A DNA stretch of 63,276 bases, counting the filler, from Collodictyon triciliatum (taxonomy: Eukaryota), in assembly GCA_043381765.1 (NCBI GenBank). It is 12 parts of 12 records of this genome, joined end to end, with 100 filler letters (N's around TTAATTAATTAA, not from the genome) between each part and the next. Parts side by side here need not be neighbours in the genome. Positions count along the whole stretch, not along the records: positions 28,264 to 33,812 come from JBHJMP010005121.1; 11 more parts are not named here. The stretch is one strand, 5' to 3'. Below the pieces are notes generated by a model. It did no database searches. It saw nothing but the letters and a program-made list of their open reading frames with translations, and was not told the DNA's origin. This document shows, piece after piece, positions 21,794 to 56,582 of the stretch (within the stretch, counting starts at the first letter, position 1; each line of letters begins with the position of its first letter). The position numbers were made by a program, and so were the translations under genes.

Positions 21794-22839
21794 CTACAAT
21801 TTAANNNNNNNNNNNNNNNNNNNNNNNNNNNNNNNNNNNNNNNNNNNNNNNNNNNNNNNNNNNNNNNNNNNNNNNNNNNNNNNNNNNNNNNNNNNNNNNN
21901 NNNNNNNNNNNNNNNNNNNNNNNNNNNNNNNNNNNNNNNNNNNNNNNNNNNNNNNNNNNNNNNNNNNNNNNNNNNNNNNNNNNNNNNNNNNNNNNNNNNN
22001 NNNNNNNNNNNNNAAAGTCAGCCCAGAGAAAAAGCAACGGTGAAAACGCCTCGGCACAGGGTTACTCGCCAAATCATGTAAGATAAGCAAAGAGGGGACT
22101 GACCGCTTGGAAAAGCATGACGATGACGGTTTTTTTGATCAGGTTCTGCAAGGCAAGAGGGAAGGAGTGTATCACGCCTATGCGGGAGGCTGGGTTTAGG
22201 CGTGTGTGCTCGCCCGCAGAGACCGATCCAGCAACAGAGTCAATCTCATCAACAGCCTCCTCGTCATAACCGCGCGGAACTTGCGACATACTGCGAACCT
22301 GTATAAGAGCGCACGTAACTTATTGCTTGTCCATGGATTTCCCCTTCACTATGCCATTGATTTGATTCTCAGCAAGACATCTTGACTCGCTGGTTATTGG
22401 CATAGCCGCAAGTCAGATCGAGATCGTTAGAGTTATTTGGAGGTTTTTTTTTTTTGCGACGAAAACCTCATCCTTGAATAAAACCAAAAAAAAAAAAAAA
22501 ACAAAAAAAAAANNNNNNNNNNNNNNNNNNNNNNNNNNNNNNNNNNNNNNNNNNNNTTAATTAATTAANNNNNNNNNNNNNNNNNNNNNNNNNNNNNNNN
22601 NNNNNNNNNNNNAAGTAAAAATAAAAAAAAAGTAATATTAATATATATATGATGTCAAATTTGTAGATTACTTTTTTTTTTTTTTTTTTGATAAACGAGT
22701 GTAATGCATTCTGGCTCAATAATCTTTACATGAAGCTGTGTTTTTTTTTTTTTTACTTTATTTAATTTCTGATATTATTGGCTACGGTATTTTCGTTACA
22801 CCGGGGAAAATTTCTTGGCATATTTTAGTGAGTGTGCTA

Positions 22840-27882: not shown

Positions 27883-28263
27883 CCCTGGTTTCTGGTGCGC
27901 TGCGAATCAAGCGAAACACACACTTCCAGCCGAGAGGTACATAATGGCAACAGATCGGTTAAGATGTGCCCTGAGGAGATCCGGCAAAAAAGCTGAACCC
28001 AATCAGTTCTCGTTTACCTTTCAATCTTCCAGGACTTTTTTCTTCTTCTTTTCCTTTTCCTTTCTCTTTCTTTTTCTCTTTCTCTTTCTCTTTCTCTTTC
28101 TCTTTCTCTTTCTCTTTCTCTTTCTCTTTCTCTTTCTCTTTCTCTTTCTCTTTCTCTTTCTCTNNNNNNNNNNNNNNNNNNNNNNNNNNNNNNNNNNNNN
28201 NNNNNNNTTAATTAATTAANNNNNNNNNNNNNNNNNNNNNNNNNNNNNNNNNNNNNNNNNNNN

Positions 28264-31200
28264 AAGGCAGAAATTCGTGTCATTTGTTGGTTTGTATGAG
28301 CCAAGTCTGCATGGAACACATTCACTTCCATCCTCAAACTGTCCCGGAGGGCATGTGCAAGCACCATTGAATGATATATAGGAATAAATGCATTTGCACT
28401 GATCGATTGATTGAGAGCCTTCTTTAGTTGTAGTTGAGCGTGTGGGACATGAATTGCAAGAAGAGCTTCTCTCTGAGCTGTAACTCCCTTTTGGACATGA
28501 AATGCATGATGACTGATTTAATGAACCAGTTTTATTGTTGAATGTGCCAGCTGAACACGATGTGCATGATGCTTGGCCATTTCTATCATTCCAAGTGCCT
28601 TGTGGACATTCAATGCATGATATGTTTCCATATGAGCCAGAGTTTGAGTTGAATGTGCCTTTTGGACAAGCAAAGCATGAGCTTGAGTTTTTTGGGAAGT
28701 CTTCTTCTTGATAATATCCTGGTGAACATAGGCTGCATGATGCGCTTCTTTCTGAGCTGTAGCTTCCATTGTGACATGAAACACATGATGTTTGGTTGAA
28801 TGAACCAGTTATGTTGTTGAATGTACCCGCTGGACATGATAAACATTCATCTCTTTGTTCATTACCATACGTTCCTTTCGGGCATTTAGCACATGATGAG
28901 TGGCTTGTTGATCCAAATCGTGGATTGAAAGTTCCGTCAGTACAATTAGTGCACCCAGTCTGACCAAGGTTTGCATTGTAAGAACCAGCTGGACAAAGTT
29001 CACATGTTGATTCGCCAGACTTTGATGAATATCTTCCTTTTGGACATGGTTGGCAACTGCTTACACTTGCTGACGCAACATCTGGGTTGTATGAACCGGC
29101 TGGACACTTTTCGCAAACGGTTGCTTTAGTAGAGTTTGAGTAAGTTCCTGGTTGACAGGGAGATGTTATAGATGCTCCTTTTTCTGGGGAATAAAATCCT
29201 GGTTTACTTTCTTGGCATCTCGATTGACCTTCGACTCCGCTGTAAGTACCTGGCTCACATTCTATGCATGAAGAATTTGAGGTTGCCATCAAATCCACTC
29301 CATAAGTTCCTGAAGGACACAAAGTGCAAGACTCCAATCCAAATTTGTCCCCATAAGAACCTGAAAAACATTTAATACAAGCATTGTAAAGAGAACTTGA
29401 CCTCCTGCTCGGGTTATATGTTCCAGGTACACAACTTCTACAAAATGATTGGCCTGAAAAAGGATTGTATGTACCAGCGTCGCATTCAAGACAGTCAGAT
29501 TCACTAATAGAGCTATTTTTGGTGGTATAAGTTCCAGACGGACACAAAGAACATGAATTTAGATCGTTTATATTGTAATATGTTCCCTCTGGACATGGTT
29601 TGCATTTATTCGAGAGCCAATCGAAGTATCCATATCCACAAAGATTCCAGATTTTGACAGTATTATCACCACCTCCAGAAACAATTTTTGAGCCATCCGG
29701 AGTAACAGCAACACTGTAAACATGACTAGTATGGCCGGTCAATGTGCGAATTAAAGCTCCATCAGAAAGATTCCAGATTTTGATTTTTATATCAGCACTT
29801 CCAGAAACGATTTTTGAACCATCAGGAGTGATAGCAACACTGCGAACATAATGAGTATGGTCGGTCAATGTGCGAATTAAAGCTCCATCAGAAATATTCC
29901 AAATTCTGATTGTATTATCGTAACTTCCAGACACAATTTTTGAACCATCAGGAGTAACAGCAACACTGGAAACATCGTCAGTATGACCAGTCAATGTGCG
30001 AATCAAAGCTCCATCAGAAAGATTCCAAATTTTGATTGTTTTATCCAAACTTCCAGAAACAATTTTTGAGCCATCAGGAGTAACAGCAACACTGAGAACA
30101 TCACCAGTATGACCAGTCAATGTGCGGATTAAAGTTCCATCAGAAAGATTCCATATTTTGATTGTTTTATCCAAACTTCCAGACACAATTTTTGAGCCAT
30201 CAGGAGTAACAGCAACACTGTTAACATCACTAGTATGACCAGTCAATGTGCGAATCAAAGCTCCATCAGAAAGGTTCCAAATTTTGATTGTATTATCCTC
30301 GCTTCCAGAAACAATTTTAGAGCCATCCGGAGTAACAGCAACACTGTTAACATCACTAGTATGACCAGTCAATGTGCGAATCAAAGCTCCATCAGAAAGG
30401 TTCCAAATTTTGATTGTATTATCATAGTATCCACCACCACCAGAAACAATTTTTGAGCCATCAGGAGTAACAGCAACACTGGAAACATCGTCAGTATGAC
30501 CAGTCAATGTACGAATCAAAGCTCCATCAGAAAGATTCCAGATTTTGATTTCATTATAGCTTCCAGACACAATTTTTGAGCCATCTGGAGTAACAGCAAC
30601 ATTATCAACACTAAAAGTATGACCAGTCAATGTGCGAATTAAAGCTCCATCAGAAAGATTCCAAATTTTGACAGTATTATCCCAGCTTCCAGAAACAATT
30701 TTTGAGCCATCAGGAGTAACAACAACACTGGAAATACCATGAGTATGACCTGTCAATGTGCGAATCAAAGCTCCATCAGAAAGGTTCCAAATTTTGATTG
30801 TATTATCCAAACTTCCAGACACAATTTTTGAGCCATCAGGAGTAACAGCAACACTCAAAACGGTACCAGTATGACCAGTCAATGTGCGAATCAAAGCTCC
30901 ATTTGAAATCTTCCAAATTTTGATTGTTCTATCATTACTTCCAGAAACAATTTTTGAGCCATCAGGAGTAACAGTAACACTGAAAACCCTATCAGTATGA
31001 CCATTCAATGTGCGAATCAAAGCTCCATCAGAAACATTCCAGATTTTGATTGTTCCACCTTCATAATAATCACCACTTCCAGAAACAATTTTTGAGCCAT
31101 CAGGAGTAACAGCAACGCTTTCAACACCATAGCCATGGCCGTACAATGTGCGGATTAAAGCTCCATCAGAAAGATTCCAAATTTTGATTGTATTATCAGC

Positions 31201-31713
31201 ACTTCCAGAAACAATTTTTGAGCCATCAGGAGTAACAGTAACACTGGAAACACCATCAGTATGACCAGTCAATGTGCGAATCAAAGCTCCATCAGAAAGA
31301 TTCCAGATTTTGATTGTATTATCAGCACTTCCAGAGACAATTTTGGAGCCATCAGGAGTAACAGCAACATTGTAAACATCACTATTATGACCAGTCAATG
31401 TGCGAATCAAAGCTCCATCAGAAAGGTTCCAAATTTTGATTGTATAATCTGGCCAATCATCATGGCTTCCAGAAACAATTTTTGTGCCATCAGGAGTAAC
31501 AGCAACACTGTTAACGTTACCAGGATTAGCGATGGTGTAAACTTGGTCATCTTGCCCTTCAACAAGACACAATTGGCAGTGGAGCATCAATCCTAAAGAT
31601 ATATCAATTAAAATCCTATGTAATTTGAATTTATAAAATCAGAAAAATTAAAATATCATAAATGACTAACCCAACAGCAACACAGCTGCAAACGACTTTG
31701 AGTTCAATCTCAT
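28264..31713 (-). CDS. Secreted or cell-surface protein: signal peptide + 15 highly similar WD40 repeats + Cys-rich GCC2/GCC3 (ephrin-receptor-like/TNFR-like) repeats; 3' end missing
   Basis: Exon 1 (31713-31671, MRLNSKSFAAVLLL-G) splices over a 78-nt GTTAGT...TTTAG intron (31670-31593) in frame to GLMLHCQLCLVEG-QDD. WD40 array is at about 31545-29641, followed by about 23 CxxCxxG[T/S][Y/F] modules that run to the scaffold end with no stop codon. Confidence 0.9.
29641..31545 (-). repeat. Coding tandem repeat with a roughly 126-bp unit, 15 copies (WD40)
   Basis: The DNA unit ...ATGACCAGTCAATGTGCGAATCAAAGCTCCATCAGAAAG... recurs about every 126 nt. Protein consensus: ALIRTLTGHxxxVxSVAVTPDGSKIVSGSxDxTIKIWNLSDG. 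Confidence 0.95.
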
Positions 31714-50576: not shown

Positions 50577-50842
50577 CTGGCAATACATTAAGGTACAATG
50601 TAATATTAGTAAAAAAGAAGATAAAAAAAGAAGATAAAAAAAGAAGATAAAAAAAGAAGATAAAAAAAGAAGATAAAAAAAGAAGATAAAAAAAGAAGAT
50701 AAAAAAAGAAGATAAAAAAAGAAGATAAAAAAAGAAGATAAANNNNNNNNNNNNNNNNNNNNNNNNNNNNNNNNNNNNNNNNNNNNTTAATTAATTAANN
50801 NNNNNNNNNNNNNNNNNNNNNNNNNNNNNNNNNNNNNNNNNN

Positions 50843-54200: not shown

Positions 54201-56203
54201 ACCATATCAGGAATCTGGTCATAATATGTTAAACTGAATATTGCAGAGATGATGGTGAAGAATGAATATAATATATATTACATCTTCGAATTTTTTCAAC
54301 GTGAGCAGGCTTGGTCTGGAGAAACTATGATGCTTAGGGGTAAATATGGAAGATGAAAAGAAAATTGATGTCATGGAATATGATTTTAATCAGAACAATA
54401 CTTGATGAGACATTTGTCATGGCTGAAGAATGCCGTCCTTAGGTTGATAACATTGCATATGTCCATATTTTCAGATACTATCTGTTTTCTCATAGTTAGA
54501 GCAATTTCAATCATCGAATCAACTGTTTTGAAAGCGAATGTGATTGCAAATTATAACCTTGTCGATAACAATTTCAGCCACCTGAAAAGAATGAAAATAA
54601 GAGTTCATTTAGCCTTAATTGTCTCAAAAAATATAAAAAATTCTCACTTCTAGTAGTTTTTTTTTTTGGAATCTAAAATATTACCATTCGATTGCGCACT
54701 TGGTCTTTACTGACTGATATTTGCTTATATTGATTTATGGCCCTGTGACGGAAATCTTAATTGAATGTAAAAAGGACCTGAATATATCAAAAATATTATC
54801 TGTGAAGCGATTTACCAGATGTACAATGCTGCAGAAACATGCGACAGGTATCTAGCAAACAGTATTGTTTGGTGCGAAGTCAAAACAGCCTGTATGAATG
54901 AAGTAATTAGATTCGAAAAATTGACATTCATCAGATATTTCATTCTATTGTATTTTGTTTATCAGACCTCGTTCACATAGGGAGAAAAATCAATTACATC
55001 GACTTTACTTCTTGAACAGCAAACGAATCCCTTCATAGGAGTGAAATCATGAATATGTTAGTAGAAATAACACTGTATGAATATTCAAAATGATTCAAAC
55101 CTTGACTGTGTATTTATCGATGAAGGTATGACAATTATGTACCTAAAAATTTCGGCAATCGATGTTAAAAATGATATCTTCAATTAAATATTTCAAAAAG
55201 GGTCGCACCAATATTGTTGCCCCTATACGCAGACCTAATCCATAATTCCACAGCGGAGTGTGAACTGTGATCAAAAAATACGCCTGAATGTGCGCAAGTT
55301 TTTTTTAATTCTTATAGCATTTTACAAATTTAAAACTCTGGTGCTAAAATATACTTGGTATGATTAATTCTAAAGTTCTATTGTTTAAGTAAGGAAATTA
55401 ACAAATACTCTATCAATTTCAAAAACTCCTGGCGAAATTATGTCCGTAATCCTTCCTGTGTATGATATTGTGTGCAGGTATGACTCATCAATCAGATTGG
55501 TGAGGAATGGGGGTAGTATCGTGTGGTAGTGGCAACGCCCATGAAATGGTGATGTATCACTACTCTTTCTTGTGCTGAGTGAGAATGCTTGGCCAGACAA
55601 AGGAAGATTACTTGCATGAGTGATTGATATTGCTTCGGCACACGGGAAGAATTCGTCAGAGAGAAGTAAAATTGAGCATTTTAAATCATGGTCCCATGGT
55701 AGTTGCTCAAAATTCTGTATTCTCAAAACATCTCCGCATGACATGGTAGGGTATATTCTTTCATAGGAGGAGCCTTGGCACATTATTTTAACGAATTTGC
55801 TTTTCTCTGTGTGAATTTCAAGAAAGAAAAAGGACTTTTCGCGAGCCTTTCTAATCAAAGGTCCTACAGCAACAAGCCTTCCAACAATACTTTGAATATG
55901 TGACGGCCTTATTGGAGTAAATAATCGGCTATCTGTGGTACTGAATTGCTGAATTGACATTTCCTCTACTTCGATGTAAGAATGCGCTGCTTTAATCCAG
56001 TTCCACCGCAATAAGTGCACCACTTTTCCATGGTTGGACGGGTGGAGATGCGTTCGGTCCAAACAAACGATGGGAATTGAGTACTTTCCATGTACAATCT
56101 TGGGAAGGTAGTTTGCCCAGCTCTTGGATGGATTTTTAGACATGAATTGGTATTTTACTTTCTTTCGTGAACTGCCATCACTTTGCATTAGTTCCCTATC
56201 CAC
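51231..56203 (-). CDS. CTC1: CST complex subunit CTC1-like telomere OB-fold protein; multi-exon, 5' end probably missing
   Basis: Spliced exons give ISYTGRITDIISPGVFEIDR, GLGLRIGATIL|VHNCH and GFVCCSRSKVDVIDFSP, and near the C-terminus VLVEDGTAEGLLYL. These recall conserved vertebrate and plant CTC1 blocks in the same order. Confidence 0.75.
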
Positions 56204-56266: not shown

Positions 56267-56582
56267 AAAACTATAAAACTATAAAACTATAAAACTATAA
56301 AACTATAAAACTATAAAACTATAAAACTATAAAACTATAAAACTATAAAACTATAAAACTATAAAACTATAAAACTATAAAANNNNNNNNNNNNNNNNNN
56401 NNNNNNNNNNNNNNNNNNNNNNNNNNTTAATTAATTAANNNNNNNNNNNNNNNNNNNNNNNNNNNNNNNNNNNNNNNNNNNNTAAAAAACCAATAAAAAA
56501 CCAATAAAAAACCAATAAAAAACCAATAAAAAACCAATAAAAAACCAATAAAAAACCAATAAAAAACCAATAAAAACCAAAA
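56267..56582. repeat. Scaffold-terminal microsatellites (AAAACTAT)n and (TAAAAAACCAA)n on either side of a linker
   Basis: Direct reading of the sequence. Confidence 0.9.

Follow-up and report, generated by a model that had tools for sequence, protein, structure and literature searches.

A WD40 array joined to a cysteine-rich stalk: a candidate secretory-pathway binding protein of Collodictyon triciliatum

Analysis of a 63,276-nucleotide stretch of DNA (the window) from the AT-rich genome of the microbial eukaryote Collodictyon triciliatum points to a gene, encoded on the minus strand and cut at its 3' end, whose predicted product combines a hydrophobic leader, 15 WD40 repeats that vary at a few positions, and a long stalk of cysteine-rich modules. 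The gene is probably real, and its sequence features suggest that the product is probably a surface or secreted protein. It appears fairly likely that this gene encodes a secretory-pathway glycoprotein that carries a WD40 head on a stalk and acts as a binding receptor or adhesin. Canonical eukaryotic WD40 propellers are regarded as cytosolic or nuclear scaffolds, and WD40 arrays that combine internal conservation with hypervariable positions are known from intracellular NLR-type proteins, where they form the sensor end. If such an array is also made in the secretory pathway, on a receptor-type stalk, extracellular recognition would be a further use to which this sensor module has been put.

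Gene model, leader peptide and predicted topology

The gene model (Table 1) includes a short first exon that, as proposed in the first-pass annotation, supplies the first part of a hydrophobic, signal-peptide-like leader and joins the second exon in frame across a putative GT..AG intron, so that the spliced product comprises 1124 codons without a stop. An in-frame TAG is located 9 nt upstream of the exon 1 ATG. At the other end, the frame enters the N44-TTAATTAATTAA-N44 linker, that is, the end of the contig, and the 3' part of the gene is therefore absent; there are 11 such linkers across the window, at ~5.6-kb spacing.

Table 1. Features of the WD40-stalk gene and of the adjacent contig end (positions in the window)
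Feature	Coordinates	Strand	Description and basis
Exon 1	31671..31713	-	43 nt; ATG at 31713 and first 14.3 leader codons; read directly, spliced CDS translated
Putative intron	31593..31670	-	78 nt; GTTAGT...TTTAG; GT..AG; phase 1; sequence only
Exon 2	28264..31592	-	~3.3 kb; rest of leader, WD40 array and Cys-rich stalk; stop-free to contig end
Exon-2 part of leader	31555..31592	-	ends at predicted cleavage site VEG/QDD; hydropathy and -3/-1 rule by hand
15 WD40 repeats	29614..31533	-	42-aa units; spliced residues 35-674; Pfam, TRF, unit alignment, AF2, Foldseek, phmmer
Cys-rich stalk	28264..29613	-	spliced residues 675-1124, incomplete; Pfam PF07699, module and Cys spacing, 8tx1 match
Artificial contig joiner	28164..28263	.	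N44-TTAATTAATTAA-N44; outside the gene; marks the gene cut

The leader starts with two basic residues (R2 and K6) that are followed by the core FAAVLLLGLML, with a 9-residue Kyte-Doolittle maximum of 2.9, and cleavage is predicted before QDD, the residues at -3 and -1 being V and G, respectively; by hand analysis, the n-region, the h-region and the -3/-1 residues of a cleavable ER signal peptide are all present. Given the length of the hydrophobic stretch (19-residue mean of 2.13), a signal anchor is possible as well. The first WD unit is preceded by 34 residues, 27 of which belong to the leader, and no second TM-like segment was detected in the 1124 available residues. The combination of a leader, a stalk of disulfide modules and no internal TM segment implies that the WD40 array, for which an extracellular location had been proposed, is indeed extracytoplasmic, provided that the gene model is correct.

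A tblastn search with the spliced product within the window produced no match outside the gene, the other contigs there being unrelated. Metagenome scans with the last WD unit and the stalk yielded 89 pattern matches, none of which was confirmed, and a scan with a degenerate 29-nt pattern of the conserved WD-unit DNA yielded 0 matches. Four sequencing runs, none of which is on record as RNA, were aligned, all with small shares (0.10, 0.07, 0.05 and 0.00). The 31670/31593 joint is seen in none of the run contigs, which also leave positions 29189-29743, at the WD-to-Cys junction, and 31779-32703 uncovered; these observations are neutral as evidence. Three further observations are weak hints. Run X1 shows loose ends at 31665 and 31721, where a contig appears to match exon 1 and a few flanking bases and to differ from the gene on both sides; this contig could represent a second copy of the leader exon. 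A 1295-nt contig from the same run aligns to 28264-28469 with 14 differences, contains a skip of 285 nt (side of only 27) and continues for about 1 kb beyond the end of the gene fragment, where it would cover the C-terminal part of a paralogue or an allele. Finally, joints that go back inside the WD array were seen in X1 and X2 and may reflect paralogues, alleles or graph artefacts.

The WD40 array, its variable positions and its sequons

The presence of fifteen WD40 repeats, as previously annotated, is supported by the match to Pfam PF00400 (E 2.9e-163, 523.9 bits against a cut-off of 27, 15 stretches) and by the alignment, in which we delimited 15 units of 41-46 aa each; the number and order of these units, as well as the WD-to-Cys junction, are read from one contig, which belongs to a fragmented short-read assembly of the kind in which internally conserved arrays readily collapse. 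The units are not nearly identical at the DNA level, as had been stated: nucleotide identity between pairs of units averages 0.838 (range 0.66-0.94), and Tandem Repeats Finder reports a period of 126 and 14.7 copies with 84% matches. The mean amino-acid identity among units 2-14 is 82% (range 69-95%), so that some pairs are above 85%, while the array as a whole averages slightly less than the threshold of high internal conservation (HiC), that is, >85% identity over at least 100 aa (Dyrka 2014, PMC4986451).

The AF2 model of the WD region, obtained with a 31-row alignment in place of a single-sequence run (pLDDT 38.3), has a pLDDT of 87.2 and contains 59 strands, with the N-terminal 24 and the last 9 residues unplaced. 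Foldseek aligns this model to 2ymu (TM 0.72/0.81) and also to other tandem double propellers, and 2ymu is the best solved match of the WD region in a phmmer search (E 7.4e-180). On the strength of the model, the 15 repeats are predicted to form a tandem double beta-propeller. A role of the N-terminal QVYTI segment as a velcro strand is unsupported, given that the model leaves residues 1-24 unplaced. The search of the ESM Atlas retrieved WD40 clusters only, all with scores of at most 0.83, under the level that counts. Hydrophobic leaders are present at the N-terminus of 34 of the 120 best WD40 matches, several of them bacterial, judging by source naming.

Variation among the units is concentrated at unit positions 5, 6, 8, 24 and 26, each with 5-8 residue types, and takes the form of two residue pairs that flank a conserved V and a conserved D within a conserved scaffold. 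There are 13 distinct combinations of variable residues among 14 units, and the pN/pS ratio, calculated between the units of one allele, is 1.49 at the 5 variable codons compared to 0.25 at the other 37 of the 42. In HET-E, positive selection has been reported at repeat positions 7/9 and 25/27 (Paoletti 2007, PMC1805685), to which the variable positions here correspond, offset by one. The HET-E-like hypervariability claimed for this array is thus upheld by the location of the variable codons and by the contrast in pN/pS. The synonymous difference between the repeats is about 20% (pS 0.196), and therefore homogenisation of the array is not recent.

As noted at first pass, nearly every repeat contains a sequon: the W-N-x-S/T motif, at W+1, is found in 13 of the 15 units, and these are copies of one motif rather than 13 independent events. 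Across 218 related arrays, the W+1 sequon is present in only 80 of the 3257 repeats (2.5%), and not one of these arrays has it in half of its repeats. With a leader in front of the array and a sequon motif that is rare in cytosolic and bacterial relatives, the WD part looks secretory even if the stalk is disregarded. The claim that the stalk is rich in sequons did not hold: its 12 sequons compare to 8.1 +/- 2.4 when the composition is shuffled, with 12 or more in 175 of the 2000 shuffles, so that their number is explained by composition alone.

The cysteine-rich stalk, the domain junction and alternative readings

The stalk matches the Ephrin_rec_like (GCC2/GCC3) family, Pfam PF07699, over 11 stretches (E 4.8e-66, 218.8 bits against a cut-off of 23.1). 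It contains 18 modules of the strict C..C..G[TS][YFW] pattern, or 19 by a relaxed pattern, and 49 cysteines (none in the WD region) arranged in about 24 pairs, with spacings alternating between 3 and 13-18; accordingly, the original count of about 23 modules is a fair one. The best solved match is MST1, the extracellular filament protein of Chlamydomonas mastigonemes (8tx1, E 1.1e-31), in which the tandem Cys domains build a disulfide ladder (PMC10602792); the next is ELAPOR1, an endosome/lysosome-associated protein, going by the entry name. By analogy with these solved proteins and with relatives that possess leaders and TM segments, we infer that the stalk modules are extracytoplasmic and contain disulfides.

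These two matches also fit, instead of a membrane receptor, a secreted protein with a structural or coat function, for example in a hair, scale, test or matrix filament, or the cargo of a secretory organelle; its stalk would polymerise or cross-link, and its WD40 head would serve as an adhesive or assembly module. Many of the 150 best representative matches are giant proteins of 2000-7900 aa made of such modules, which is compatible with a structural role; the lack of a TM segment within the 1124 available residues would be as well but carries no weight given that the C-terminus is missing. Against this possibility, in 43 of the 120 best relatives, the stalk is followed by TM-like segments (30 with one such segment and 13 with at least five; an N-terminal leader is present in 34), and the blade-specific variable residues suit recognition better than self-assembly. 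Among the six stalk relatives that were scanned, P0221 and P0232 combine an RCC1-like propeller with a stalk and a TM-like segment near the C-terminus, P0224 combines an NHL repeat match with a stalk, P0238 contains a stalk along with Kelch and F5/8C domains, and in P0248, a TM-like segment separates the stalk from a kinase; the closest stalk relatives also include a 7TM-like region. We therefore consider a structural or cargo role rather unlikely and favor a binding receptor or adhesin.

No protein with both WD40 (PF00400) and Ephrin_rec_like was found among the 473 database matches, and no description of WD40 with Ephrin_rec_like or GCC2_GCC3 in one protein was found in the literature, main texts being the scope of this search. 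The sole paper mentioning both terms (PMC6594006) concerns thyroid cancer fusions. Homology searches with the whole protein and with a query centered on the junction were dominated by WD-only proteins and are uninformative on the architecture. The suggestion that the architecture is undescribed is thus valid for the specific WD40 and Ephrin_rec_like pairing, which is unprecedented among the proteins found, but not for the general design of a propeller on a stalk, which is already known from the RCC1-like, Kelch and NHL relatives and from CRINKLY4; leaders, too, are frequent on WD40 arrays of bacteria.

A pairing that is found in no other database protein could also result from an assembly chimera, in which a short-read assembler joined a gene for Cys modules to a WD40 array that belongs elsewhere, for instance to a cytosolic or NLR-like gene. 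Indeed, the window strings together ~5.5-kb contigs, many with microsatellite ends, and internally conserved WD arrays are reported to defeat short-read assembly (PMC12222747). However, the open frame of 1124 codons spans the junction, where the DNA is complex and unique and the two parts share no repeat that would allow an assembler jump, and unit 15 is complete, with divergence confined to its last nine residues. The GC3 values of the WD and stalk halves are alike (0.23 and 0.28, respectively); a point on the other side is that their codon fractions correlate at no more than r = 0.52. The leader located directly before the WD array and the sequon motif that is lacking in cytosolic and bacterial relatives likewise argue against an origin of the array from a cytosolic gene, and we judge a chimera to be improbable. 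Slightly less probable still is that the upstream exon is unused and the gene either starts at the ATG 6 nt inside exon 2, yielding a cytosolic protein, or is a decaying pseudogene: the intron is read from the DNA alone, but a start in exon 2 would leave half of the hydrophobic core, which the 43-nt exon completes exactly, in frame and over a canonical GT..AG intron, the 49 regularly spaced cysteines would not fold in the cytosol (to our knowledge, Ephrin_rec_like-type Cys modules are known only from extracytoplasmic proteins), the ORF is intact for 3.4 kb, and the scaffold codons show the low pN/pS given above.

Possible function and comparison with known systems

Under the preferred reading, a secretory-pathway glycoprotein with a WD40 head on a stalk, the leader would direct the protein into the ER, where the Cys modules could oxidise to form a rigid rod, as in MST1, and with no membrane segment between head and rod, the WD40 head would be displayed at the rod tip, outside the cell or in a lumen. 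The five variable residues of each blade would map to the top face of the propeller and could form the ligand-contact surface; the W-N-x-S sequon is presumably on the C-D loop side, opposite to this face, as we assume from WD40 topology. By analogy with its nearest stalk relatives, the gene most probably continues beyond the cut into a single-pass anchor, a 7TM-like region or a kinase. In that case, the product would be a putative receptor or adhesin that binds an external macromolecule, for example from prey, a microbe, a mate or kin, and the WD40 member of a broader class of protist surface proteins in which a beta-propeller is paired with an Ephrin_rec_like stalk.

A more far-reaching possibility, which we regard as doubtful, is that NLR-type diversification, with a homogenised WD40 scaffold, few hypervariable contacts and reshuffling among repeats or paralogues, is used on the cell exterior in the form of a stalked receptor family. 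If so, such a family would discriminate kin, mates, prey or microbes and would be the propeller counterpart of the variable LRR and Ig surface receptors, and the first eukaryotic extracellular WD40 recognition repertoire with high internal conservation. A family whose paralogues and alleles differed at the five variable positions would provide a tractable model of how recognition diversity arises in unicellular eukaryotes; a single invariant copy or a chimera would be merely an unusual domain fusion or an artefact. After the RCC1-like, Kelch and NHL types, the WD40 propeller of this gene would moreover be the fourth one in the large and essentially undescribed protist surface class with Ephrin_rec_like stalks.

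The description of the array as an NLR-style sensor domain captures its variation pattern, which is of the HET-E type, but does not extend to the protein: no NTPase (NACHT/NB-ARC) model was found among the best 25 of the 56 Pfam families (E <= 0.01), which include WD40/beta-propeller and Ephrin_rec_like models only, and without a NOD/NACHT module, the protein is not an NLR. The HET-E, HET-D and NWD arrays (PMC1805685, PMC4986451) likewise consist of 42-aa units in which the scaffold is conserved and the variable residue pairs of the D-A loop and the B-C turn flank a conserved residue. In contrast to the HET-E/NWD NLRs, which have an N-terminal effector module, the array described here directly follows a leader, is fused to a Cys stalk of the extracellular type and contains the W-N-x-S sequon in most of its units.

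Among solved structures, the best match, as indicated above, is 2ymu, from the bacterial WRAP branch (Pereira and Lupas 2022, PMC9218822), and the identity between blades in the C. triciliatum protein is well over the 60% that defines 'highly symmetric' propellers. The WD40 region of Apaf-1 (3sfz) aligns to residues 208-634 of the 660-residue WD query (phmmer E 3e-64). Apaf-1 similarly contains 15 WD40 repeats, organized as a sensor pair of 7-blade and 8-blade propellers. It is, however, a cytosolic STAND ATPase with divergent blades, and the global Foldseek TM is only 0.39.

On the stalk side, MST1 has the same tandem Ephrin_rec_like-type Cys modules and is an extracellular glycoprotein with a signal peptide, but differs in its Ig-like domains and polyproline helix, in the lack of a propeller and in its polymerisation into hairs (8tx1; PMC10602792); the best aligned stretch covers only 195 stalk residues. 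The ectodomain of CRINKLY4 (ACR4/PpCR4) likewise starts with a seven-bladed propeller and continues with a disulfide-rich domain, and its propeller is described as the functionally important part with a putative ligand groove (bioRxiv 10.1101/2020.08.10.245050). In CR4, each blade of the RCC1/BLIP-II/UVR8-like propeller contains one disulfide, and a single CRD of ~90 aa follows, whereas the protein described here has 15 canonical WD40 blades devoid of Cys and a stalk of at least 450 aa, and is outside the CR4 family, which consists of plant-specific receptor kinases.

The closest overall counterparts are protist and metagenome proteins that combine a propeller with Ephrin_rec_like modules (for example, P0221, P0232, P0224 and P0238). 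These proteins share the leader, the N-terminal beta-propeller and the long Ephrin_rec_like/NCD3G/TNFR-like stalk, which in P0221 and P0232 comprises 10-13 Ephrin_rec_like stretches followed by a C-terminal TM segment, and their stalk identity to the C. triciliatum protein is 31-39% over 84-100% of the query stalk. The C-termini of these proteins are known whereas that of the C. triciliatum protein is missing, and their propellers are RCC1-like, Kelch or NHL, compared to the PF00400 WD40 array described here.

Gene model and contig setting

The predicted gene starts with an ATG, 9 nt ahead of which lies an in-frame TAG, and consists of a short first exon, a putative intron and a stop-free second exon in frame with the first; the predicted spliced product comprises 1124 residues, with the 3' end cut at the contig end. 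Exon 2 alone would open with half of a hydrophobic core that the first exon completes exactly, which favors the spliced model. The leader proposed in the first-pass annotation is present at the start of this product and combines two basic residues with a hydrophobic core (9-residue Kyte-Doolittle maximum of 2.9) and a predicted cleavage site ahead of QDD (V at -3, G at -1); elsewhere in the 1124 residues, no TM-like segment was detected. Some 30 nt ahead of the start codon lies a TATAAA motif, which would imply a very short 5' UTR if functional, and a chance occurrence is possible in DNA this AT-rich (36-38% GC in the gene and 23% in the upstream DNA).

In the window, ~5.5-kb contigs are strung together artificially by N44-TTAATTAATTAA-N44 linkers, with no continuous locus, and the WD40-stalk gene is confined to one contig. 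Adjacency of genes on different contigs is therefore meaningless, and neighbors provide no genomic context. Perfect or near-perfect microsatellites at many contig ends indicate that simple repeats are where the assembly breaks; the WD40-stalk gene is cut at an end within Cys-module coding repeats, without a microsatellite. An ankyrin-repeat ORF on another contig ends in a TTTC-type microsatellite at the contig end, and its repeats are divergent, without high internal conservation. No Pfam match at E <= 0.001 was found for five ORFs of 272-937 codons in the window, the longest of which crosses an N gap and so is partly artificial.

Coordinates of the gene and of other features in the window
Feature	Position	Strand	Details
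Contig carrying the gene	28264-33812
TATAAA motif	31743-31748	-
Exon 1	from 31713 (start codon)	-	43 nt
Putative intron	31670-31593	-	78 nt, GTTAGT...TTTAG; sequence only
Exon 2	to contig end 28264	-	3329 nt
WD-to-Cys junction	29520-29760
Ankyrin-repeat ORF	42886-45100	+	Pfam Ank_2, E 9.3e-96
ORFs without Pfam match	2923-5097, 55385-56203	-
ORFs without Pfam match	1055-2215, 35234-38047 (937 codons), 38092-39108	+
Linkers	5557-5656, 11209-11308, 16861-16960, 22513-22612, 28164-28263, 33813-33912, 39459-39558, 45101-45200, 50743-50842, 56383-56482, 62022-62121
Further N runs	21805-22013, 37423-38007, 61100-61272		ordinary scaffold gaps
Microsatellite contig ends (examples)	5657-5952, 28056-28163, 39358-39458, 44941-45100, 45201-45398, 50611-50742, 56267-56382, 62147-62667

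Conservation and variation in the WD40 array

The fifteen WD40 repeats noted initially were recovered by Pfam (PF00400, E 2.9e-163, 15 stretches) and delimited as units of 41-46 residues; Tandem Repeats Finder reports a period of 126 with 14.7 copies and 84% matches. The repeats had also been described as nearly identical at the DNA level, which is not the case, the mean pairwise nucleotide identity being 0.838 (range 0.66-0.94); amino-acid identity among units 2-14 averages 0.82 (0.69-0.95). Judged by these identities, the array is one of high internal conservation, well above the 60% that defines 'highly symmetric' propellers (PMC9218822) and slightly under the 85% high internal conservation (HiC) criterion of Dyrka 2014 (PMC4986451). 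The scaffold pS of 0.196 implies that the units are not freshly amplified.

Variation is clustered at unit positions 5, 6, 8, 24 and 26, in pairs on either side of two conserved residues, V and D. Summed over 78 pairs among units 2-14, pN/pS is 1.49 in these five codons compared to 0.25 in the other 37, and 13 distinct five-residue combinations occur across 14 units. In HET-E, codons 7/9 (D-A loop) and 25/27 (B-C turn), located on the top face of the propeller, are positively selected (PMC1805685); the WD40-stalk array varies at the equivalent structural positions, bearing out the HET-E-like hypervariable pattern suggested earlier.

The motif W-N-x-S is present in 13 of the 15 units, whereas a sequon at the equivalent place was found in 80 of 3257 repeats (2.5%) in 218 WD-array relatives, none of which carries it in half of its repeats (maximum 4 of 11). 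By this comparison, W-N-x-S is a distinctive trait of the array; the 13 copies represent one homogenized motif, not 13 independent events. From WD40 topology, we take the motif to lie in the C-D loop, opposite the face that bears the variable residues. Sequons thus occur in nearly every unit, as claimed, but the claimed enrichment in the stalk falls away: its 12 sequons are within composition expectation (8.1 +/- 2.4 in composition shuffles, with 175 of 2000 reaching 12).

The top phmmer match among PDB sequences is 2ymu, a 'highly repetitive propeller' from Nostoc (E 7.4e-180); Apaf-1 was also matched. AF2 modeling of the WD region gave a pLDDT of 38.3 from the single sequence and 87.2 with a 31-row alignment (pTM 0.57, 59 strands), with lower confidence at residues 321-400 (~units 8-9), where length changes also are located. 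Foldseek matched tandem double propellers, among them 2ymu (TM 0.72/0.81), Pwp2 and Aip1. Given the model and these matches, a head of two propellers is the best reading, for which we infer a 7+8 division of blades.

The stalk, the junction and the predicted role of the protein

Residues 675-1124 contain 49 Cys (~24 pairs), 18 strict or 19 relaxed CxxCxxG[TS][YFW] modules, and 11 stretches matching PF07699 (Ephrin_rec_like, formerly GCC2_GCC3; E 4.8e-66). Among solved structures, the Chlamydomonas mastigoneme protein MST1 is the top match (8tx1, E 1.1e-31), with ELAPOR1 next. MST1 has a cleaved ER signal and forms an extracellular filament with a disulfide ladder of tandem Cys domains (PMC10602792); by analogy, this match supports a rigid rod outside the cytoplasm.

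Taken together, the gene probably encodes a secretory-pathway glycoprotein with a two-propeller WD40 head on a disulfide rod, a predicted binding receptor or adhesin. The rod would display the blade-specific variable contact residues of the head, and the protein would function in binding while anchored, probably, by a missing C-terminal TM or signaling part. That it is a component of a secreted filament or coat seems to us unlikely. Less plausible still is an assembly chimera of a WD40 array and a Cys-module gene: the junction DNA is unique and complex, unit 15 is full-length with the last nine residues alone replaced, the reading frame stays open across the junction, GC3 is similar in both halves (0.23 and 0.28), and the WD part, with its leader and sequon, looks secretory by itself. 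The codon-fraction correlation between the halves is low (r of 0.52), and contigs from sequencing runs gave no independent cover of the junction. The least probable option is that the leader is unused or the gene is a pseudogene.

Relatives and known systems

Cys modules were absent from the 120 best WD-side matches, and two or more such modules from all 218 WD-side matches. Conversely, no WD-region match (blastp E <= 1e-3) was detected in the 120 best word-index matches of the stalk or in 135 further representative ones (150 listed, 15 shared with the 120); these screens cover the best-ranked matches only and are not proof of absence. Metagenome scans produced no confirmed relative of the gene, the ESM Atlas only weak WD40 clusters, and a literature search no description of the WD40 plus Ephrin_rec_like architecture. 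A hydrophobic N-terminal leader is present in 34 of the 120 best WD matches, some of them labeled by their sources as Poribacteria or Gemmataceae, indicating that exported WD40 arrays are ordinary in bacteria.

Identity to the nearest stalk relatives is 26-39%; most of these are unnamed proteins from metagenomes, MMETSP or EukProt, with Anaeramoeba, Percolomonas and Andalucia as named sources of a few. Many of them join the stalk to other types of beta-propellers: in P0221 and P0232, which represent 274 and 302 clustered sequences, respectively, 10-13 Ephrin_rec_like stretches are combined with a leader, an RCC1-like propeller and a TM-like segment at the C-terminus. An NHL repeat match was obtained for P0224, Kelch and F5/8C for P0238, and a protein kinase together with a TM segment for P0248. 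Among the best 120 stalk relatives, 34 have a leader, 30 one later TM-like segment and 13 five or more. Proteins of the P0221/P0232 type, from protists and metagenomes, form a large class that is apparently undescribed and would merit separate study; they share a leader, a propeller of the RCC1-like (or Kelch or NHL) type, an extended Ephrin_rec_like/NCD3G/TNFR-like stalk and a TM segment at the C-terminus.

The NLR-style sensor domain envisaged in the first-pass annotation survives as an internally conserved array of the sensor type, but NLR identity itself is ruled out because the protein lacks an NTPase. The ectodomain of plant CRINKLY4 consists of a seven-bladed propeller, RCC1/BLIP-II-like although termed WD40 by the authors of the study, and a Cys-rich domain (bioRxiv 10.1101/2020.08.10.245050). 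The WD40-stalk protein has a similar layout; membership in the CRINKLY4 family was rejected. The protein unites two known kinds, the internally conserved WD40 sensor array and the surface protein with a propeller on an Ephrin_rec_like stalk, in a new combination.
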